Shown: positions 2,085 to 40,527 of the stretch, piece by piece
Layout of the letters: the number at the start of each line of letters is the position of its first letter
Numbering within the stretch: the stretch's first letter is position 1
DNA from: a virus
Lineage: Duplodnaviria > Heunggongvirae > Uroviricota > Caudoviricetes
Strand: one strand, 5' to 3'
Virus record (IMG/VR): IMGVR_UViG_2675903413_000001
Location: 1 to 40,646 of that record
DNA length: 40,646 bases
The notes under the pieces: generated by a model
The model's input: only the letters and a program-made list of their open reading frames with translations
Databases searched by the model: none
What the model was told of the DNA's origin: nothing
Position numbers and translations under genes: made by a program

Positions 2085-2266
2085 TGATCTCCTCCTTTGC
2101 GCAACATTGCATTCAGATATTTGTTTTGATTCACTGATGGAAAAGAATTTCTCTTAAGCAATTCCTCTCTCGATGGCATTGGCTTTACGCGTTGGCGAAT
2201 AATCATTTCTGCAGGAAGAATGCCGGGATTGTATGCAAGTCCTCTCATGGTAAATTCCTCAGTCAT
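2081..2266 (-). CDS. Hypothetical small protein (61 aa)
   Basis: ATG at 2266 overlaps TGA stop of the 97-aa gene (ATGA); its stop overlaps the next start; re-called from ORF 2081..2398. Confidence 0.45.
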
Positions 2267-2552
2267 TACTGATAGCGCCATAGCGTGAGCGGTAATTACG
2301 CAGGCGCGGGTCAATTTCAGGGAAGTGGGTATATGTGGCTTTGCGGAATGGTCGGATTGATGTCTGGTAAATTCGCTCGCGTTCTTCTTTCTCTGCAAGC
2401 CATATACAATGGCGAAATTCCTTTTCCTCTTTCGTTTCCTGCGGTAGAGACATTATTCGATCGTAGTTTTTTCTGAATTTATCCAGCACCTCCGATACGG
2501 AATTGCCGGAACAGCGGCGCGGGTCATCCGCACCATACAGAGGCGCTGGCAT
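2259..2552 (-). CDS. Hypothetical early protein (97 aa)
   Basis: ORF track; SD AAGGA 7 nt upstream of ATG 2552. Confidence 0.55.
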
Positions 2553-2575
2553 GATTAAATCCTTATTTTTCTGAA

Positions 2576-2959
2576 TCAGAATGGGATGGAATCGTCGTAT
2601 ACAGGAGTGTTCTGCTGGTTACTACTTTGCTGCTGCGGGCCATTTCCTGAAGCTGCAAATCCAATCTTTGCATTCAGTAATTCAAGAGTGATTGATTGAC
2701 CATTTTGCCCCTGATAAACATCAACCCTGATGTTTTCTCCGGTAATTTCTACAATGCCACCTTCAACAAGAACACTACGGTAGTAATCCGCTTGCGCTCC
2801 CGGCTTGGCAAATACAACGGCGCTGTAGTTTGTCCATTCTTTCTTTTTTGTCTGGCGATCGTAATACTGAACGCCAGCACGGATGTTGAATCCGATATTT
2901 TCCCCGGCCTGAAACTCTCTTACGGGCTTGTTTAGTCTTACAGTAATCGAATGTGCCAT
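2576..2959 (-). CDS. ssb: Putative phage single-stranded DNA-binding protein (127 aa)
   Basis: C-terminal acidic tail ...PVYDDSIPF as in SSB C-termini; ATG 2959 overlaps Erf stop (TAATG); ORF track start 3049 rejected. Confidence 0.5.
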   Translation of the reverse strand: MAHSITVRLNKPVREFQAGENIGFNIRAGVQYYDRQTKKKEWTNYSAVVFAKPGAQADYYRSVLVEGGIVEITGENIRVDVYQGQNGQSITLELLNAKIGFAASGNGPQQQSSNQQNTPVYDDSIPF

Positions 2960-3564
2960 TAAGCAGCAGCTCCTTCTAATTCGTCTCGTCTGATGTTGTA
3001 AACGTCCTGTGCTTTGTGCTGCTCCGGTGTTCCTTCGAGCATCTTCCACGCTTTGGCGAACGCCTGTTTAAGCTCTTCCACGGTGTTTTTTTGCATTGCT
3101 GCGTCAGTGAATGCCTTTAGAACCTGTTCAGGTGTAGGTGATGGTTTTGATTGCTTTGCTGCTGCATTCTGCTGATGTTTATGCTCGTCTGTATCTGCAT
3201 CTTTCGCATCATCAATGCCGAACAAACCATTGAGGCAATACTTGCGTGCATAAGAGCTTGTAGCTCCCGTAACTTGTGCAGAATCCATTCCTTTCTTGCT
3301 TTCTTCCTCTCGTGCAAGAGCGGTTGCCGTATGACTGTTTTCGCCATCGGTAATAGTTGCCGTGGCTTTCACGTAATACCGGTCACCAATCAACACAACT
3401 TCATCGCTGATTGATAAAAACAGGCCATTCAGTAACGGCTTAACGCCTTCAAGAATGTCTTCGCAGCTTCTGTATTTATATTTACCGAATGAGTTGTACT
3501 GATTCTTTGGCGCGTTCAGATTCTCCTGAATGGCTGCCAGCCTTGCATAAAATTCTTTGCTCAT
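2959..3564 (-). CDS. erf: Erf-family single-strand annealing recombination protein
   Basis: MSKEFYARLAAIQENLNAPKNQYNSFGKYKYRSCEDILEGVKPLL matches remembered P22 Erf N-terminus; ATG 3564 preferred over TTG 3594. Confidence 0.85.
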   Translation of the reverse strand: MSKEFYARLAAIQENLNAPKNQYNSFGKYKYRSCEDILEGVKPLLNGLFLSISDEVVLIGDRYYVKATATITDGENSHTATALAREEESKKGMDSAQVTGATSSYARKYCLNGLFGIDDAKDADTDEHKHQQNAAAKQSKPSPTPEQVLKAFTDAAMQKNTVEELKQAFAKAWKMLEGTPEQHKAQDVYNIRRDELEGAAA

Positions 3565-3665
3565 ATGTTTGATCTCAGAATGGACACGGCCCAAGAAAAT
3601 AACGCTGATTTAATACTTCGACTCGGGACAAGTTAAGGCATACCCGCATTCCTTCGCGGTCGCCA

Positions 3666-5336: not shown

Positions 5337-5921
5337 ATGAACAACTCATGGTGGCAGGAACTAATGCATTTTTTCCTGCAAGGAATGACACTTAAACAGT
5401 TGATTCATATGCTAATCATCCTGATCATATTGATTATTGTTATGCCGGTAAGCGTAAAAGAATGGATAAACCTGCATAATCCAGAAATCCTTCCTCATTA
5501 CTGGATGTATTACATCCTGTTGTTTTGCGTTAGCTATGTGCTTAACGGCGTTGTTAATTCCGCTTATCACGCTGTGACTGAAAGAATTGAGGTATTCGCT
5601 GCTCAGAAGCGCAAATCTAAAGAAGAGAAATACGTGAAAGATTTGTTTGATTCGTTAACTCTTGGAGAAAGAGCGTATTTGGCACTCGCTGTAGTCGCTA
5701 ATAACCAGCTACAAACGGAAAAGGGAAGCCCTGAAGCAATCTCATTGCTCGAAAAAGGGCTTCTTATTCGGATACCTTCTGCTACTGGATATCCTGAAAT
5801 CGACCGTTTTGTTATCCCGGAACGCTATAGAAATGAGTGCTACATTAGGTTTGCTGGGAAGAAAGACAGTCTTATGGATGAACTTATCGCTCAGGATAAG
5901 CATGGCAAAACAAGTAATTAG
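5337..5921 (+). CDS. sieB: SieB-like superinfection-exclusion membrane protein (194 aa), tentative
   Basis: Hydrophobic N-terminal segments; size and position next to N as remembered for lambda/P22 sieB; on the strand opposite to the pL operon. Confidence 0.45.
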   Translation: MNNSWWQELMHFFLQGMTLKQLIHMLIILIILIIVMPVSVKEWINLHNPEILPHYWMYYILLFCVSYVLNGVVNSAYHAVTERIEVFAAQKRKSKEEKYVKDLFDSLTLGERAYLALAVVANNQLQTEKGSPEAISLLEKGLLIRIPSATGYPEIDRFVIPERYRNECYIRFAGKKDSLMDELIAQDKHGKTSN

Positions 5922-7830: not shown

Positions 7831-8478
7831 TTACCCAAACGTCTCTTCAGGCCACTGAGCCTTAACTACCTTGCCTATGATTCGGCAGCTATGGTCGCAA
7901 TCCAGGGTTCTGTATGCCGGGTTTAAAGGCACCAGGTAACTAACCCCTGCATCCTTCTCATACTTCTTGAACGTTGCCTCTGAATCACCATTTGCAGAAG
8001 CTACGCAGAAATCCCCAGACTCTACCGGCTCGGCAGGGTCTACGAGTATTAGCATACCCTCAGGAAAGCTCGGCCTTACGCCCTGTGGCGCAGTCATAGA
8101 ATGGCCTTTCACCTCAAGCCAGAAAGCTTTTTCGCTGGCTTTTGTGGTCGTTGGGACCCATGCCTTTGCATCGCTGGCTGTGTAGCTTCCCACCTCCGAA
8201 AACGGCCCGGCCTGCACTGAAGAAAATAACGGGTACTCATATTGGCGAAATACGGCGTCTGAATCCTCGCCAAACATTATTTTTGCCGGAGATACGCCGA
8301 GTGCCGCCCCAAGAACCAGCGCGTCATCCGCGCTAACCTTTCTTGTTCCTAACTCGTAGTTACCCAGGCGTGAAGGCGCAGCCCAGCCGCAAAGCTTGGC
8401 CAATTGAGCCTGGCTAAGTCCTTTAGCTTCTCTAAGGGACTTGATCCTTTCCCCGATAATTTCATGCATCGTTTTCAT
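7831..8478 (-). CDS. cI: CI/C2-type prophage repressor (HTH plus LexA-like S24 peptidase domain)
   Basis: 215 aa; N-terminal HTH ([11 protein letters not shown]), C-terminal domain with GDSM and catalytic Lys region typical of autocleaving repressors; divergent from cro. Confidence 0.85.
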
Positions 8479-15418: not shown

Positions 15419-16038
15419 GACTCGAAAGCGTAGCTAAATTTCATTCGCCAAAAAGCCCGATGATGAGCGACTCACCACGGGCTACGGCTTCTGACTCTCT
15501 TTCCGGTACTGATGTGATGGCTGCTATGGGGATGGCGCAATCACAAGCCGGATTCGGAATGGCTGCATTCTGTGGTAAGCATGAACTCAGCCAGAACGAC
15601 AAACAAAAGGCTATCAACTATCTGATGCAATTTGCACACAAGGTATCGGGGAAATACCGTGGTGTGGCAAAGCTCGAAGGAAATACTAAGGCAAAGGTGC
15701 TGCAAGTGCTCGCAACATTCGCTTATGCGGATTATTGCCGTAGTGCCGCGACACCGGGCGCAAGATGCAGAGATTGCCACGGTACTGGCCGGGCCGTTGA
15801 TATTGCCAAAACAGAGCAGTGGGGGAGAGTTGTCGAGAAAGAGTGCGGAAGATGCAAAGGCGTCGGCTATTCCAGGATGCCAGCAAGCGCCGCATATCGC
15901 GCTGTAACGATGCTAATCCCAAACCTTACCCAACCCACCTGGTCACGCACTGTTAAGCCGCTGTATGACGCTCTGGTGGTGCAATGCCACAAAGAAGAGT
16001 CAATCGCAGACAACATTTTGAATGCGGTCACACGTTAG
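15415..16038 (+). CDS. Q: Late-gene antiterminator Q (lambda-type)
   Basis: 207 aa, reads as lambda Q by recollection ([19 protein letters not shown]...), Cys-rich zinc motif. Confidence 0.85.
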
Positions 16039-32906: not shown

Positions 32907-33401
32907 TTATTTTATAGTTTTTATGAATTCTTTATTAAATCCCTTCGCTTCTCCGGGGTATCTTCCAAAGACAATTTTTATAAAAACAGAAAAAATAAAG
33001 ATAGCAACGCTTAACAACAATTGCAGTATCATTGGAACCCAAAGAACTACAGGATCTATATTCATGAAACCAAATATTCTTCCGGCGATCATGGCGAAGT
33101 ACCACACTGTTATCAGTAAACTTAGTGGCATATGAATTACTGATATTACCAATCCAAGAGCATCAGTAATTCTGTTTTCAAATTTTTCAGGGGAAAACTT
33201 TTCTTTAAGGTAATTCAGTGCGCAGGCCTCATTCTCTGGATTTTCAGCATTTTTCCCTATAGCAATAGAAATCTCAGATATCCTTGATTCAATTCTTTTA
33301 CGTTTAATAAAACTAGAAAAAAAGAACCACGCAATCTGCAACCCTATCCCCAGAAATAGAGTTGCGGCAACTAGCACAGCGTAACTCATAGAATCAGACA
33401 C
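32907..33401 (-). CDS. Multi-pass membrane protein in the sieA-equivalent slot (about 165 aa), function unknown
   Basis: Several hydrophobic segments; GTG 33401 with SD AAGGAGG 5 nt upstream (alternative ATG 33389); AT-rich; ORF track start 33617 rejected. Confidence 0.6.
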
Positions 33402-33431
33402 ACCAACCTCCTTAGTTTTACGCAGGATACC

Positions 33432-33797
33432 ATGAAAAAAGTTAACATTGGAAACGTACCAAAGATGCTCGTTCCGCTCTTTGAGAGCGGTACAATTGTG
33501 TTTTGTAGAGACTTTCCAGAATGGCAACGCCTGCATCAAAAACTTGGTGTGGACGTGCAGGACTCGGATGCCAACGGAGCGTCTCATACAATGAGCAGCG
33601 AGAATGGTGTTTTGCATGTGATAGGCGTGTTCAATGGCAAACTATCTACTATTGCCCATGAGTGTGCTCACATGGCATTCGATATCTGCTCAAGGGTAGG
33701 TGTTGATGTTGAACCAGGAAGAGCCAACGAGACTTACTGCTACTTAATGAGCAGGCTTGTTGAGTTCTGCGAGCGACATATCAAAAAGCCGGAGTGA
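33432..33797 (+). CDS. Small protein (121 aa) with HExxH motif (HECAHMAFD), putative zinc metallopeptidase-like
   Basis: ORF track; divergent from the membrane gene. Confidence 0.55.
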
Positions 33798-33810
33798 CCC
33801 GGCTTGAGTA

Positions 33811-33990
33811 TTACTTTTTGCTGTCTGGAGTTCGCTTATCCAATACCCAGCCATGACCTGGCTTTGTTGTTGGCGGAAGCCTTTCGTTGTCCTTGACGGT
33901 GGCAAAATTGTCTTTCTTACCGCCGCGTGGGCCAACCTCTTGGTATATTCCGCCGTTTTTTCCTGTGTTTTCACCTGGTTTTTTCGCCAT
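33811..33990 (-). CDS. Lys/Gly-rich small protein (59 aa)
   Basis: MAKKPGENTGKNGGIYQEVGPRGGKKDNFATVKDNERLPP...; SD GAGG upstream of ATG 33990; preferred over overlapping ORF 33744..33974. Confidence 0.45.
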   Translation of the reverse strand: MAKKPGENTGKNGGIYQEVGPRGGKKDNFATVKDNERLPPTTKPGHGWVLDKRTPDSKK

Positions 33991-34073
33991 GATATACCTC
34001 AACATACACCCGTTATTGGGCGATTAAATATTGATCTCATTTTATAAGTAGTCAATATGGCCCAGGTAAATGC

Positions 34074-34106
34074 AAAAATTAACCCACCTTCAGGTGGGTT
34101 TTTTGT
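34074..34106 (+). terminator. Rho-independent terminator, possibly bidirectional
   Basis: Stem AACCCACC/GGTGGGTT followed by TTTTTTGT; A-tract upstream. Confidence 0.65.
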
Positions 34107-34155
34107 ACAAATCCTTCAGCCAGTACATAACTACTGACAGATAACCAACGCAACG

Positions 34156-34180
34156 ACCCAGCTTCGGCTGGGTTTTTTTA
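34156..34180 (+). terminator. Second rho-independent terminator upstream of tailspike
   Basis: Stem ACCCAGC/GCTGGGT with TTCG loop followed by TTTTTTT. Confidence 0.65.
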
Positions 34181-34237: not shown

Positions 34238-36397
34238 ATGACAGATATTACAGCTAATGTGATTGTATCGATGCCTTCGCAACTCTTCACTATGGCTCGT
34301 TCTTTTAAAGCCGTAGCCAATGGCAAAATTTATATCGGAAAAATTGACACTGACCCGGTAAATACTGAAAACCAGATTCAGGTTTATGTAGAGAATGAAG
34401 ACGGATCTCACGTTCCTGTTTCGCAACCAATCATCATTAACGCTGCTGGTTACCCGGTATATAACGGACAGATTGCCAAGTTCGTAACTGTGCAAGGCCA
34501 TTCGATGGCTGTTTATGATGCATACGGTGTGCAGCAGTTCTATTTTCCTAATGTGCTGAAGTATGACCCGGATCAGTTTTCTGCAGAATGGCTTGCCAAG
34601 ATGTCTGCGCCTGATTCTTATGCATTATTTGGTACATTCTCATCAATAGCAGATCTACGAGCATTTACTGCATACTCATCAGTTAAGGAAAATGGAAGAG
34701 TCTATGTTGATTCTTATCACCTTGGAACTGGTTATGGCGGAGGATATTTCCGCTGGAATTCAACCAGCACTGATACTGATGACGGAGGCTATACCATTAA
34801 CCCAACTGGCAATACTGGAACAGGACGCTGGAAGCGAGAGATATCCTCTGCGTATGTCGCAAGGACGGTGAGTCCGTTGGAGTTTGGGGCAAAAATTAAC
34901 GATAGTACCTTCGACTGCGCGCCAGCTATCAATGCTGCGATTTCATATCTAAACCCTTACCTTGATGCCTCATATGACTCACATCAAGGCGGGGATGTTG
35001 TTTTTCCAACTGCTCAATACTTCATTAATGACACTATTTATCTCTCTCCAAATGTAAGGGTAATTGGCACGGGAGGAACGTCTGGCTTTAGATATTCACG
35101 CGCAGGATGCTCAATTATTATTGCTATGACGTCCATGGATGTAAATAAATTGCTTCTAGATACCGCTCCATGGCTATCAGACGGCACTGCAAGATATACA
35201 GTGACAAACAGTGTGGAAAATGGGCTGTATTTGAGTGCTGGATATTATGGACCATATATAGAGAATATTGTTTTATTGGGCCGTCCAGATACGCAGGCGG
35301 GAATTAGAATCTGGAGGACTCCGGATGCCAAACTGATTGGAGTTGCAGTGTATGACTGTAAGGTTAGCTTTTGGATAAGTGGTTCTTGGGGGACTGCGGT
35401 AGAGAATTGCTTTGCACAAGGCGCTAAATATGCAACATTTTTAACACCCCACACTACGGCACTAAACTTGGTAGGAGGATATTATACTGGTAATTTATCG
35501 CAAACATGGGATAAAGGCACGGCACAATGGTTCCACAGATCCGGAGATGTATCAAATAGACCAAATATTGCCTATGTCACCACTTTTCTCTATGCCCACG
35601 ACTGTGTCGACATAAATATGCACGGAGTAACATGGGAGGGGTACAATCGAGATTTCGCCCTCTTTTATAGTGGTAACGTTAATGTTTTCGGAGGTTATAG
35701 TGAGAGTGTAAATGTAGCCGCCAGCGAGACTGGTCACCGAGTTTGGTGTCAGTGCGTGGGGTCAACTATTAATACGTTCGGTGTTTTCTGCAACCATGAT
35801 ATAAAAGATTTTGTTGTTCAATCTGGAAACACACTGTCAAGTGGGGCGGTAGTCAAGACTGATATCTCACAGATCAATGTTCGCGACATGAAGATTGGAT
35901 CACCATTTAAATTGATTACCAAAGATCTTGGCTTCGGGCGTTATGGAATCAAAATAAATTGCGAGCATCCAATTACAGAAAATATAGCTGATACTTTAGC
36001 GCCGTTGAGAGGTTATACAGTCCAATTTAAAGGGCTTCTTGATGTGTACACCATGCGTTCACCTTCAATCGCTCAAGGAGCAAACACATTCGATATACAG
36101 GTAAGCAATTGTGTGGCAGGGGGAGAATACTCATGCAGGCTTCTAATGAAAAATGTGGCTGTAACATTACAGCAAGATTTAAGATTTAATGTTTTGGTGG
36201 GTAATGTTTGCAGCGTTACTGGATATCAAGGCAGAAGCTTAGTTGGAACATCTACCATACCAGCACCATCTGCAAGCTTTAATTCAACAACGGGGGTGTT
36301 GACTCTCACCTTTACCGGAAACTCTGCAAATTACTCACTTAATAGGTTAAAAGTTGTTCCACTGGAGGAGCAGCCGCCATTTACCTACTCGACGTAA
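34238..36397 (+). CDS. Tailspike: conserved P22-family N-terminal head-binding domain fused to a distinct beta-helix receptor-binding domain
   Basis: 719 aa; first ~115 aa ([42 protein letters not shown]...KYDPDQF) match remembered P22/HK620 tailspike N-terminus, remainder diverges. Confidence 0.85.
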
Positions 36398-36408
36398 GCA
36401 CTAATGGG

Positions 36409-36427
36409 CGGCGATGCCGCCCAAATT
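36409..36427. terminator. GC-rich hairpin between convergent tailspike and gtr genes
   Basis: GGGCGGC-gat-GCCGCCC; no strong T-run, so terminator function is tentative. Confidence 0.4.
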
Positions 36428-36430
36428 ACT

Positions 36431-37885
36431 TCAGCACGGGGTGTTGCCTCCTCCTTTTAACCATATTAAAAAGCCATTGTTTTCTTGGTTGAAATATATC
36501 GAATAAGAATTGGTGGATTTTATTGGCTTGGTTATAGATGCACATACATTGGATATTATCTTTTTCTGTTCTTCTCTAGCAAAATTGAATTTTACATTTG
36601 GGATGTCGATTGACTGGGCAGCCATGCTAGACGTCCAATCATATGTTGGAACCAACATTGTAGAGATTAATGGATATGCTTTTACAGTATTTATCGATAA
36701 GGGAGCTATTGGCGCCCTGCCAGAATATACAATGTACGAATTTATATTGTAATCTGAGCTATTTCTGATGTCATTAATTGACAGGTATAAAATTGACTTG
36801 TCATAAATTCTCTGCTCTTTGATAGCAAAGGAAAAGCCATATGAAATTACATATAAAGGTATTGCGATGACAGCGATTGCAAAATATTTTTTATTATTAC
36901 TAATTTCGCTTATGGATATCATGGTGAAAATTAAAGCTGTTAATCCTACAGCCCCCATCATCATTCTCGCTGCAATGGCTGATTCACCGAAAATCGCCAG
37001 CATTCCTATTGGTGATATGGCAACCACGGAAATACAGATTATGATTATCGCGATATTTAAAAACGAAACTCTTGGTTTGGTTGTTGTTACCAGTAACGCT
37101 AAAGTCAATAAATATATTGCCACATAATAGATAGATAGACTTGATTCTAATAAAGTATAAAATCTAACCATTCTTTTTACAAAGTAATCAATAAGTGACG
37201 CATCTAACGATATTGCCTGGTCTCTTGTTCCAGTCATCGGGAAAGCAACCTTTATTATAAAATAATAAAGAATCATGCCAATGGCGAGAGATGCCATTGC
37301 TTTTAAAGCTAAAATAATAACTTCCTTTGCGCAGTCATTAGATTTTTTTAATTTCACAATTAAGTTTACTGCCACAAGAGCTATGTATGAATTTATTGAT
37401 GTCTGATATAAAGCCGCGCTAAAAGCAATGATAATAAAAGATGCAATAAAGTAGATTTTGTCTTCTTTAAGTGCGTAGACAGAAGCAACAACCGCACCAC
37501 AAAGTGAAAGCGTCATTGGCAGGTTATCGTACTGATAGAGCATGTTTTCTATATAAAATGGACTTAGCGCGAAGCCTGACGCGCAAATTAACGCTGCCAC
37601 GCTTGTCGAACCAAGTATGTGACGAGTATAGAAAATTGCTGTCATTGACATTACTGCTACTGATAATACCTGTCCAAATATTCCATAACCAGGTAGCTTG
37701 GATGAGGATATCATTAGCAGATGCATCAGCAAATCTGCTAAAGGCCTTCCGTTTTGAGACCACCCATCAAAACCATTCTGCGCCCTAAAAATATCATCAA
37801 CGTAAAGTTGATTGTTTATGATGAATGGCAAATAAAACAACCCTATTAATATAAATGGGATGTGATAAGTATTATTTTTTTTCAT
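36431..37885 (-). CDS. Serotype-specific O-antigen glucosyltransferase (Gtr type-specific), polytopic membrane protein
   Basis: 484 aa; highly hydrophobic; AT-rich; downstream of gtrA-gtrB. Confidence 0.75.
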
Positions 37886-38801
37886 TTTTAATGCCCTTCA
37901 AAATATACCTAGGACGCTGCTTAACTTCAGTGTAAATTCTGCCGATGTACTCACCAAGAACACCTATCCCTATTAACTGGATTCCGCCCAGAAACAAAAT
38001 AGATACTAACAGTGAAGGATAACCACGTACCGCATTACCGAAAGCCAACGTGTCGATAATCATCCAGGCGCCGTAAAGAAACGACAGGCCGGCGACCATC
38101 AGGCCAATATAAGTCCACATGCGAAGAGGGAAGGTTGAGAAGCTAGTAATGCCCTCAAGTGCCAAGTTCCAGAGCTTCCAGCCATTGAATTTTGAGTCTC
38201 CGGCGACACGCCCAGCGCGAGCATACTCGACAACATCAGTACGCCCTCCAACCCAACTCAGAACGCCCTTCATGAAGAGGTTGCGCTCCGGCAACAGTTT
38301 GATGTTCTCAACCACGGCACGGGACATCAGGCGGAAGTCACCGACGTTCTCCTCGATCTGCGGATTGCTTATTTTGTTATGCAGCTTATAAAACCACTCA
38401 GCGGATTTGCGCTTTAGTCTGCTGTCGGTGGAGCGATCAGAACGCTTAGCCAGGACCATGTCAGCGCCTGCCTGCCACTTCTCGATGAGATAAGGAATGA
38501 CTTCAATCGGGTCCTGCAGGTCAACATCAATCGGGATAACCGCATCACCTGTTGCGTGGTCAAGCCCGGCGAACAGAGCGGGCTCTTTACCGAAATTACG
38601 GGTGAAGGAAAGAGGAACGACAAGCGGATCGGCCACAGCCAGAGCATTAATAATTGACTCCGTAGCGTCTTTGCTGCCGTCATTTATGAAAACAATTTCC
38701 ACTTCATATGACTTCAATTCTTCGAATTCACGTACCGTTTTATAAAAAATTGGTATCGCTTCTTCTTCATTGAAGACAGGAACGACCAGAGATATCTTCA
38801 T
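37872..38801 (-). CDS. gtrB: Bactoprenol glucosyltransferase
   Basis: 309 aa; GT2 motifs ([21 protein letters not shown]) and C-terminal TM segments. Confidence 0.85.
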
Positions 38802-39160
38802 TTCGCATCCCTAAAGACAATGAACTTTGAATAGACGAAACCGCACACCAGGCTGATGGCGGAGAAGGTGACAAGAGTGACAATTGGAGGAAGTGAACAT
38901 CTATCAGCAGCCCATCCAACAGTAGCACTCAGTGTTCCCATGAACCCGACATATAACATGTAGCGCATCGTTGTAGTTGATGCTTTGAATGTGAATTTTG
39001 CATTCGCGAAGAAGCTAAAACTCACAGCCACAACAAAACCTGCGAAGTTTGCCAGAGCCTGATTGGTATGCGCGGCATAGATACATACACCAAAAACCAC
39101 CCAGTGTATAAGGGTGTTCAGCACGCCAATAGAGGTGTACTTTGCAAATAGTTTTAACAT
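38798..39160 (-). CDS. gtrA: Bactoprenol-linked glucose translocase (flippase)
   Basis: 120 aa four-TM protein; matches remembered GtrA sequence. Confidence 0.85.
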
Positions 39161-39312
39161 TTCTTCTATCAGCTAATAATCAAAGGCATGAAGTCTATCA
39201 TCCAAGTCTCAATCGATCGATACTTGCTGTGGTTGATGAGACAACACTGAGACACACAAAGCTTTGCACTGGATTGCAAGGCTTTGTGCTATCCGATGGT
39301 GTTTAAGTTTCC

Positions 39313-40470
39313 TCACTCCACCTTTTCATCAATCCAGTCCGCCCACCACTGCATCATTTCTCTGCGCTTATCGAGATACTGAGCATGGTTGTAAATCCCG
39401 CGCACAGATCCGCCGTTGGCATGTGCAAGTTGCACTTCAATAGCGTCAGCAGGCCATTCGTGCTCGTTCATAATCGTGCTGAATTCATGCCTGAATCCGT
39501 GACCGCTTTCCAGACCCTCATAGCCGATTTGTTTAATCACAAGTAATACCGCGTTCTCGCAGATTGGCTTCTTCTTATCGTTGCGCCCGGCAAAAACAAA
39601 CTCTGATACTGGTTTAGTGATGGAGCTTAGCGTAGTGAGAAGTTCAACCACCTGGTCTGACATAGGAACAACATGAATCTTGCGGCCCTTCATCACACTG
39701 GCGTCGATGGTGATAATCCTGTTTTCAAAATCGACGTTCTTCCATTGCATGGAACGAAGCTCTTTCGTTCTTAGGGCTGTGTAGCGTAAAACTTTGGTCG
39801 CAATGAGCGATACGATGCTTCCTGAAAATGTTGCCAGTGCTTTGTTGAATGCAGGGATCTGGTCTGCTGGAAGAAACGGGAAGTTCTTCTTGCGGTATCC
39901 TTTCATGGCGTCTGCAAGGTCAGGTGCCGGGTTATATTTAGCCCTTCCGGTGACAATAGCGTAACGGAAAACCTCGCCGCATCTTCTGCGTGCTTTGTTG
40001 GCTCGCTCCATTGCACCGCGATCTTCAAATCTGCGGATTACTTCCAACAGTTGCATCGGCTCAATATCCTGAATTTCAAGGCCGCCGATGATGGGTAAAA
40101 TGTCGTCATCAAACATTTTTGCAAGTTCAGTCGCATACCCTACTGACCATACTTGCTTCTTGTGCTCGTACCATTCCTTGTAAATCGCACTAAAGGAATT
40201 GTTGTTAGACGAAGCCTTTTTCGCTTTTACCGGATCGATGCCAACCGAGATGTCTTTCCTCGCGGTCCATGCTTTATCCCTTGCCTCCTGCAAAGTCATA
40301 AGCGGATATTTTCCGACGGTCAGGATTTTCTCCTTACCGTCAATCTTGTAGCGAAGCTGCCATACCTTTTTCCCTGACACAGGGACATAAAGGTACAGGC
40401 CATTACCATCGAGAAGGCGGTATGGTTTTTCTTTCGGCTTTGCTGCTTCAATCTGCTTAACGGTGAGCAT
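39313..40470 (-). CDS. int: Tyrosine integrase (P4 family)
   Basis: N-terminus MLTVKQIEAAKPKEKPYRL typical of P4-type integrases; catalytic region with R...HxxR...Y; alternative GTG start 40506. Confidence 0.85.
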   Translation of the reverse strand: MLTVKQIEAAKPKEKPYRLLDGNGLYLYVPVSGKKVWQLRYKIDGKEKILTVGKYPLMTLQEARDKAWTARKDISVGIDPVKAKKASSNNNSFSAIYKEWYEHKKQVWSVGYATELAKMFDDDILPIIGGLEIQDIEPMQLLEVIRRFEDRGAMERANKARRRCGEVFRYAIVTGRAKYNPAPDLADAMKGYRKKNFPFLPADQIPAFNKALATFSGSIVSLIATKVLRYTALRTKELRSMQWKNVDFENRIITIDASVMKGRKIHVVPMSDQVVELLTTLSSITKPVSEFVFAGRNDKKKPICENAVLLVIKQIGYEGLESGHGFRHEFSTIMNEHEWPADAIEVQLAHANGGSVRGIYNHAQYLDKRREMMQWWADWIDEKVE

Positions 40471-40527
40471 GGGTAAAAATCCGGTGGGTAAAATTATTTT
40501 ATCCACTTTTTACCCGTCATGGTGTGC
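40471..40527. repeat. Arm-type repeats near attR: GGGTAAAA twice (40471..40478, 40485..40492) and TTTTACCC once (40517..40524)
   Basis: Same 8-bp motif as 75..95 at the other prophage end. Confidence 0.5.

Follow-up and report, generated by a model that had tools for sequence, protein, structure and literature searches.

A Two-Layer Mosaic Tailspike in a P22-like Escherichia coli Prophage with a Putative O-Antigen-Targeting β-Helix Exchanged Together with gtr Genes

The DNA analyzed here, a 40,646-nucleotide stretch that we call the window (positions 1–40,646 of the viral record IMGVR_UViG_2675903413_000001), is essentially an entire P22-like prophage of Escherichia coli. Its tailspike gene is a two-layer mosaic, in which an old boundary at codon 114 is overlaid by a very recent double crossover. 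The boundaries of the recent exchange, at tailspike codons 231–233 and inside gtrB, differ from the old junction at the KYDPDQF motif; therefore, the O-antigen glucosyltransferase gene gtrC was carried along, and the exchanged unit comprises the putative receptor-cutting domain and a receptor-modifying gene. Taken together, the data make it very likely that this is a P22-like tailspike with a conserved anchor, into which an O-antigen-targeting β-helix has been swapped with its gtr genes. A preliminary description of the DNA, made from the letters alone, had proposed a conserved head-binding domain fused to a divergent receptor-binding domain. The gene and its parts are as follows.

34238–36397, + strand: tailspike gene, an ATG-to-stop open reading frame (ORF) encoding 719 amino acids
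34238–34579, + strand: head-binding (virion anchor) domain, residues 1–114, supported by PF09008 and PDB sequence matches
34580–34927, + strand: linker helix, intermediate β domain and start of the β-helix cap, residues 115–230, P22-like backbone
34928–36397, + strand: β-helix body and C-terminal β-sandwich, residues 231–719, putative O-antigen binding/cleaving module

The first ∼115 residues were described as the P22-family head-binding domain, and this holds. The PF09008 (Head_binding) profile spans residues 1–113 end to end (113/113; E = 1.6e-65, 218.9 bits versus a cut-off of 24), and PDB sequence matches to the N-termini of the Sf6, P22 and HK620 tailspikes run from residue 1 to about 120–130 (E = 5e-65 to 3e-43). 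Over residues 1–114, the protein is 94.7% identical to HK620 gp9, 91.2% to Sf6 gp14 and 74.6% to P22 gp9. An exact-sequence look-up shows that the complete protein is identical to RefSeq WP_053270777.1, which is automatically annotated as “phage head-binding domain-containing protein”. In the phage particle, the anchor would dock a presumably trimeric spike on the tail hub, and it would therefore stay matched to the conserved tail proteins.

The abrupt loss of similarity claimed at KYDPDQF is seen in both protein and DNA comparisons. Pairwise BLASTP with the P22, Sf6 and HK620 tailspikes places the junction at residue 114, past which no match better than E = 0.003 is found, so that similarity to a single known tailspike is not uniform along the protein. 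The receptor domain likewise did not show significant sequence similarity to the endorhamnosidases of P22 and Sf6 or to the HK620 endo-N-acetylglucosaminidase. Sequence of the tailspike region was also compared with 50,697 records of characterized phages (megablast and tblastn) and with 5,426 complete E. coli genomes (megablast and sensitive blastn). Among the megablast matches listed for the tailspike gene, which come from 31 phage records and 1113 of the 5426 genomes, every one stops at nucleotides 338–351 of the gene, no more than three codons from codon 114, which encodes the F of KYDPDQF, and no match extends over 80% of the gene. At this edge, DNA identity goes from 90–97% to undetectable within one codon. 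The KYDPDQF junction is an old, family-wide module boundary.

The recent exchange was placed by a three-way DNA comparison of the window with an epsilon15-like prophage (L017) and another P22-like prophage (L007), which behave as its putative parents.

34928–38639, no strand assigned: exchanged cassette, consisting of the tailspike β-helix and C-terminus, gtrC and the 3′ five-sixths of gtrB
34928–34935, + strand: left crossover, tailspike codons 231–233, in the conserved cap-helix motif (last difference from L017 at 34927, first difference from L007 at 34936)
38635–38639, − strand: right crossover, gtrB codons about 54–56 (last difference from L007 at 38634, first difference from L017 at 38640)

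Within the cassette, the window and L017 differ at 0 of 3712 positions, and identity to a siphovirus-type prophage (L004) is about 99%. The flanks tell the opposite parentage. They are 100% identical to L007 at 34787–34908 and 38635–39396, with three differences (about 99% identity) over 34450–34786, while 34450–34900 is only 64–73% identical to L017 and L004. Parentage thus switches reciprocally, with a resolution of 8 bp on the left and 5 bp on the right. The suggestion that the receptor-binding module had been exchanged horizontally is borne out by the 3712-bp identity and the switched flanks; the recent swap reaches farther than the tailspike, into gtrB.

The protein comparisons show the same pattern. 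Residues 228–719 have no differences from P0138, a tailspike with an epsilon15-type anchor, and four from P0001, a tailspike with a PF18668 anchor, while 46–57 of the 113 positions in residues 115–227 differ from these two proteins. Conversely, residues 1–235 are nearly identical to the tailspike of another P22-like prophage (P0003), whose helix is only ∼59% identical. P0001 is the best database match, at 92% identity across the protein’s C-terminal 83%. Its N-terminus is of the PF18668 (TSP1/Gp66) type and the head-binding domain is absent; its prophage is of siphovirus type, as it encodes a tape measure, a tail terminator and a tube protein of the Big_2 type, and the same anchor occurs on 1485 phage records, among them phages named as siphoviruses such as vB_EclS_CobraSix and vB_StyS_KFSST1. 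The anchor of P0138 is 72–87% identical to the tailspike N-termini of epsilon15, TL-2011b and BUCT554, and the protein is located in an epsilon15-like prophage. The same module is therefore found on three anchors in three phage types: P22-like, epsilon15-like and siphovirus-type.

At both crossovers, the putative parents share short runs of perfect identity within sequence that is otherwise ∼65–90% identical, and the window encodes a P22-type recombination system.

2259–3594, − strand: Abc2 (anti-RecBCD, PF11043) and Erf (PF04404), P22-type

On the basis of the short identity runs in diverged flanks and the presence of Erf and Abc2, relaxed homologous recombination is the likely route of exchange, possibly by means of the phage’s own Erf/Abc2. 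One sequencing run, ERR6160569, yields both a backbone-type prophage (L008) and the prophage with the identical cassette (L017), which would fit recombination within a polylysogen if the run represents a single isolate. In L008 (9640–10059), a deletion relative to L007 removes most of gtrB and gtrA, leaving a degraded conversion operon.

The genes beyond the tailspike form a complete gtr operon.

36431–37885, − strand: gtrC, serotype-specific O-antigen glucosyltransferase, 484 amino acids (PF14264 Glucos_trans_II, E = 2.3e-32)
37872–38801, − strand: gtrB, bactoprenol glucosyltransferase, 309 amino acids (PF00535, E = 3.5e-30), containing the right crossover
38798–39160, − strand: gtrA, flippase component, 120 amino acids (PF04138), P22-like backbone

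All three domains, PF04138, PF00535 (GT2) and PF14264, score above threshold, and the genes are adjacent and co-oriented. As expected from the breakpoints, the three proteins have different relatives. GtrC shares 98.8% identity with its L004 counterpart, 25% with that of P22 and 23% with that of L007; GtrB is 88–96% identical to other GtrB proteins; and GtrA is 100% identical in L007 and 85.8% in L004. Compared with other Gtr operons in general, GtrA and GtrB are 76–100% identical and GtrC is variable. The G+C content in 1-kb windows is 34–36% over gtrC, 42–44% over the tailspike helix and 45–51% over most of the phage, and the low value of gtrC suggests a foreign origin that predates the cassette exchange. 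In gtr operons of the P22 type, phase variation relies on clustered GATC sites and on OxyR. By eye, the region upstream of the window’s gtrA (39161–39312) contains one GATC site only, and phase variation of this type is not evident there.

We next consider what the exchanged part of the tailspike looks like. An AlphaFold2 model was built from 43 homologues; its mean predicted local distance difference test (pLDDT) score is 80.6, with values of ∼90 from residue 130 on and 83–92 for residues 130–200. The model shows a linker helix at ∼111–121, a small β domain at ∼129–205 and a cap helix at 228–238, after which a right-handed parallel β-helix is predicted to run to ∼575; taken as a whole, the β-helix occupies about residues 210–590 and is followed by a C-terminal β-sandwich at ∼595–710. 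The structural neighbors of the model are β-helix proteins, and a search of viral folds in BFVD returns generic tailspikes and exopolysaccharide (EPS) depolymerases as the nearest. The preliminary description had assigned the ∼600 C-terminal residues to one different, β-helix-like domain. The model agrees with a β-helix, but residues 115–230 are a linker and a shared intermediate domain rather than part of the divergent module. Indeed, the family profile over residues ∼116–290 matches WceF (E = 7e-30), CBA120 tailspike protein 2 (TSP2; E = 2e-24) and K2-2 TSP (E = 1e-13), and no PDB sequence or profile match is found past residue ∼290. Residues 115–230 are thus not novel, being homologous to CBA120 TSP2, WceF and K2-2 TSP; the intermediate domain and helix cap are shared widely, and the helix body is not.

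The helix body belongs to a rare family. When 1.84 billion representative proteins were scanned in full by HMMER with the helix and C-terminus, 15 matched at E ≤ 0.001; only one of these spans all 480 residues, at 53% identity, and the runner-up is a fragment of 323 residues. In the 50,697 phage records, megablast and tblastn return only weak matches to the receptor module (27–38% identity, E ≥ 4e-6); these come from Acinetobacter, Klebsiella and Kayfunavirus spikes and cover the early part of the helix. In the complete E. coli genomes, megablast of the tailspike gene matches nothing beyond its first ∼340 bases, and the β-helix plus gtrC block has no match by sensitive blastn. Across the family, the acidic residues D253, D308, E342, D458, E467, E489 and E497 are invariant, and these may be regarded as candidates for catalysis.

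By analogy with P22, Sf6, HK620 and CBA120, the β-helix would bind the host O-antigen lengthwise and cleave it as an endoglycosidase, and this cleavage would set the host range. Once the phage is a prophage, its gtrABC genes would glucosylate the same O-antigen. The glucosylated lysogens would no longer be substrates for the spike, which would protect them from superinfection and spare the host O-antigen from self-cleavage. A precedent for such a match between spike and GtrC is the Salmonella prophage BTP1, whose GtrC shields the O-antigen from its own tailspike and blocks superinfection (PMC4413052). The C-terminal domain had been proposed to be an O-antigen glycanase or esterase. Of these two, the glycanase is the more plausible: Pfam returns neither an SGNH domain nor any other esterase domain at E ≤ 1, the model contains no α/β domain, and its β-helix is continuous, making an esterase unlikely. 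A glycan-cleaving tailspike, with a hydrolase favored over a lyase or esterase, is by comparison with known spikes the most likely assignment.

Other explanations for these data were weighed. The change in similarity could in principle reflect differing selection along a vertically inherited gene, with a conserved anchor, a fast-evolving tip and no recombination, since receptor-binding tips are generally under diversifying selection. This has next to no chance of being correct. It is contradicted by the disappearance of DNA identity within a single codon and by the C-terminal module, which is 100% DNA-identical over 3.7 kb to that of a phage whose anchor and virion genes are unrelated, and it is already refuted by the two reciprocal switches in parentage. 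For the function of the module, it is unlikely that it acts as a polysaccharide lyase, an esterase or deacetylase, or a noncatalytic binder instead of a glycoside hydrolase. Besides the missing esterase domain and the single continuous β-helix in the model, the helix has several invariant acidic residues, as do hydrolytic tailspikes, and its nearest sequence-detectable relatives, WceF and Fri1 gp49, both carry the name of glycoside hydrolase.

The substrate deserves the same scrutiny. Many of the nearest structural neighbors are capsule or EPS depolymerases (K2-2 TSP, Depo32, Fri1 gp49 and WceF), and capsule-specific spikes are known on P22-like phages, for example the CUS-3 endosialidase and that of phiHS3. 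One could thus propose that the C-terminal module is a capsule depolymerase that targets a capsule or exopolysaccharide, such as a K antigen or a colanic-acid-like EPS. We consider this quite improbable, however, since all examined carriers of the exact module (the window and its copy L006, L004 and L005, and L017 and L018) have a gtr operon directly downstream, and Gtr systems modify the O-antigen via undecaprenyl-phosphate-glucose. In addition, the O-antigen-specific CBA120 tailspikes are also among the best structural matches, and fold neighbors at 12–17% identity are uninformative on the substrate. An O-antigen-cleaving β-helix accordingly remains the preferred assignment.

Several observations weigh against the proposal as a whole. 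The β-helix is at most 17% identical to any solved structure, and the catalytic residues therefore cannot be transferred from them; with sequence matches ending at residue ∼290, such a transfer was dropped. The pectate-lyase-like PF12708 profile (Pect-lyase_RHGA_epim) scores 25.6 bits, below the gathering cut-off of 27; the relatives P0001 (29.8 bits) and P0021 (37.7 bits) pass it, and only the first 60–90 of 213 profile positions align. The model is of a monomer, and the spike is presumably a homotrimer, with six on the tail hub of each virion, by analogy with its relatives. Finally, the helix and the modification gene are not always found together: the helices of L014 (from Yersinia) and L015 are 80% identical and their GtrC proteins only 40%, and the prophage that carries P0004 is without any gtr operon. 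These last two cases rule out that spike module and modification gene always travel together.

Joint transfer is nevertheless seen a second time. A P22-like prophage (L010, with tailspike P0002) and a lambda-like prophage of siphovirus type (L011, with tailspike P0008) have in common a block of 3.76 kb at 88% identity, which consists of a receptor domain and a 630-residue O-acyltransferase (Acyl_transf_3/SGNH); the two enzymes are 93% identical. This is a second, independent pair that behaves like the cassette of the window. Taken with the exceptions above, the helix and modification gene are jointly transferred in recent events and reassort over longer time. A broader proposal, about as likely as not, is that a co-adapted cassette that first cuts the receptor and then disguises it moves as a unit between unrelated temperate E. 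coli phages (P22-like and epsilon15-like podoviruses, and siphoviruses). It would do so, probably inside polylysogens, by relaxed homologous recombination within a conserved flank on each side, namely the intermediate domain/cap helix of the spike and gtrB/gtrA. If true, receptor specificity and superinfection immunity would be passed on jointly, and selection would act on the cassette as its unit and not on the tailspike gene.

A further observation concerns the siphovirus-type prophages. The same pair of small ORFs, of 79 and 106 amino acids, is found in L004 (15060–15619) and L011 (10262–10821) at 77% DNA identity, directly downstream of different cassettes: gtrCBA in L004 and the acyltransferase in L011. 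The pair may be a conserved right flank for cassette exchange in this lineage.

The genome setting identifies the window’s tailspike as the gp9 homologue of a P22-like (Lederbergvirus-type) E. coli prophage integrated at argW. The late region is 95–97% identical in DNA to HK620, Sf6 and vB_EcoP-683R2, and the genes are ordered gp7, gp20, gp16, sieA, remnants of immI, tailspike, gtrC, gtrB, gtrA and integrase; the tailspike gene thus lies 3′ of gp7/gp20/gp16 and the immI remnants, and 5′ of the conversion genes and the integrase. In an E. coli assembly, the locus L006 is 99.99% identical to the window over 11.4 kb and adjoins yfdC and argW, with a flank that matches yfdC and tRNA-Arg of E. coli at 99.8% identity. 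No tRNA is present at the prophage end inside the window, where the sole ARAGORN match is internal; argW lies just outside. That match, an 83-nt tRNA-Ala (anticodon CGC) at 8198–8280 on the − strand, falls within an ORF of 215 residues (7831–8478) in the immunity region and is probably a false positive.

39313–40506, − strand: integrase, with Pfam integrase domains; the prophage adjoins argW and yfdC

The “ant moron” region of the window extends over 32907–34005, where, as in HK620, intact mnt, arc and ant genes are all absent. A superinfection-exclusion gene of the SieB type (PF14163) is found at 5337–5921 on the + strand; with SieB, sieA and gtrABC, the prophage has at least three exclusion systems, like P22. 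The ORFs of this region and the terminators between it and the tailspike gene are the following.

32907–33401, gene call of the identical locus: sieA-like membrane protein
33432–33797, + strand: hkcC-like ORF
33811–34005, − strand: orf59a-like small ORF, with its own terminator at 33786–33805
34081–34100, + strand: terminator 1, a bidirectional hairpin (terminator scan; RNA fold −16.9 kcal/mol, z = −4.46)
34155–34174, + strand: terminator 2 (terminator scan; RNA fold −14.5 kcal/mol, z = −2.92)

The two tandem terminators that had been noted 5′ of the tailspike gene are recovered by both the terminator scan and RNA folding. Each is a hairpin with a T-run and has eight pairs, five of which are G-C; the region contains 8 terminator-like sites versus 3.3 ± 2.1 in shuffles. 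In HK620, the interval from the ejection genes to the tailspike is nearly identical to that of the window, and its two hairpins are annotated as “associated with remnants of the P22 mnt and ant genes”. Terminator 1 matches the HK620 region annotated tMNT nearly base for base and is a remnant of the P22 mnt region, while terminator 2 is kept in both HK620 (tANT) and P22 (ant terminator, annotated at 16012–16035). On this sequence comparison, the terminators are inherited vestiges of the immI (mnt/ant, “ant moron”) region, and their retention in HK620 and P22 rules out that they are a special regulatory feature of the tailspike gene. Late transcripts presumably pass such terminators by antitermination, as in P22. 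The immI region itself is known from P22-like phages (PMC2629481).

Within the 3′ part of the tailspike gene, a weak terminator-like hairpin is found at 36158–36173 on the − strand. Its position resembles that of the leftward “tJ” terminator annotated inside HK620 gene 9, and it could be where transcripts of the gtr operon end.

Modular tailspikes with swapped receptor domains are textbook knowledge for P22-like phages, and the window is not new in kind (PMC2629481, PMC10408124). Tailspikes that differ solely in the attachment domain are already in the literature. The conserved anchor of residues 1–115 with unrelated receptor domains has been described, as have gtrABC clusters that move among P22-, lambda- and P2-like phages (PMC2629481). 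Receptor domains are known to move horizontally across phage genera, and in Lederberg- and Uetakeviruses the gene for the receptor-binding protein is followed by modification genes (PMC10408124). In the limited collection of literature searched, we found no explicit account of the joint transfer of a helix and a modification gene. Of note are a rare, uncharacterized receptor-binding family with no relative in the phage records or complete E. coli genomes searched, and an unusually clean natural recombinant, with breakpoints of 8 and 5 bp and zero mutations over 3.7 kb. Besides the helix, the block carries the O-antigen modification gene gtrC, and it recurs in three unrelated phage types. These results bear on how host range and serotype conversion are predicted from the sequence of a prophage. 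They also bear on the engineering of tailspikes and tailocins, since the natural splice at codons 231–233 is a candidate grafting site.

Compared with known systems, the window tailspike has the same gene position and the same module boundary at ...KYDPDQF as HK620 gp9, Sf6 gp14, P22 gp9 and the CUS-3 endosialidase. Its receptor part, however, is without significant sequence similarity to those of P22, Sf6, HK620 and CUS-3, and it differs from these four in that an intermediate domain of the CBA120-TSP2/WceF type is added. The resemblance to TSP1 and TSP2 of CBA120 (Kuttervirus) and to WceF of Pantoea stewartii is limited to 12–16% identity in the helix, on different anchors and in different phage types; WceF is a bacterial enzyme, and the substrate specificity of neither the CBA120 spikes nor WceF is transferable to the window. 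The epsilon15/phiV10-type (Uetakevirus) tailspike P0138 and the siphovirus tailspikes with the PF18668 anchor, P0001 and P0139, are the reverse case: they have the same helix and C-terminus at 99–100% identity, followed by the same gtrC, but neither their virion anchors nor the remainder of their phages is related to the window. Finally, the placement of a receptor-modifying gene directly 3′ of the tailspike is shared with the tailspike/GtrC of BTP1, P22 gtrABC, Sf6 oac and CUS-3 neuO. Within this group, P22 GtrC shares only about 25% identity with its counterpart in the window, and BTP1 GtrC is reported to work without GtrA and GtrB (PMC4413052), unlike the gtrABC setting found here.

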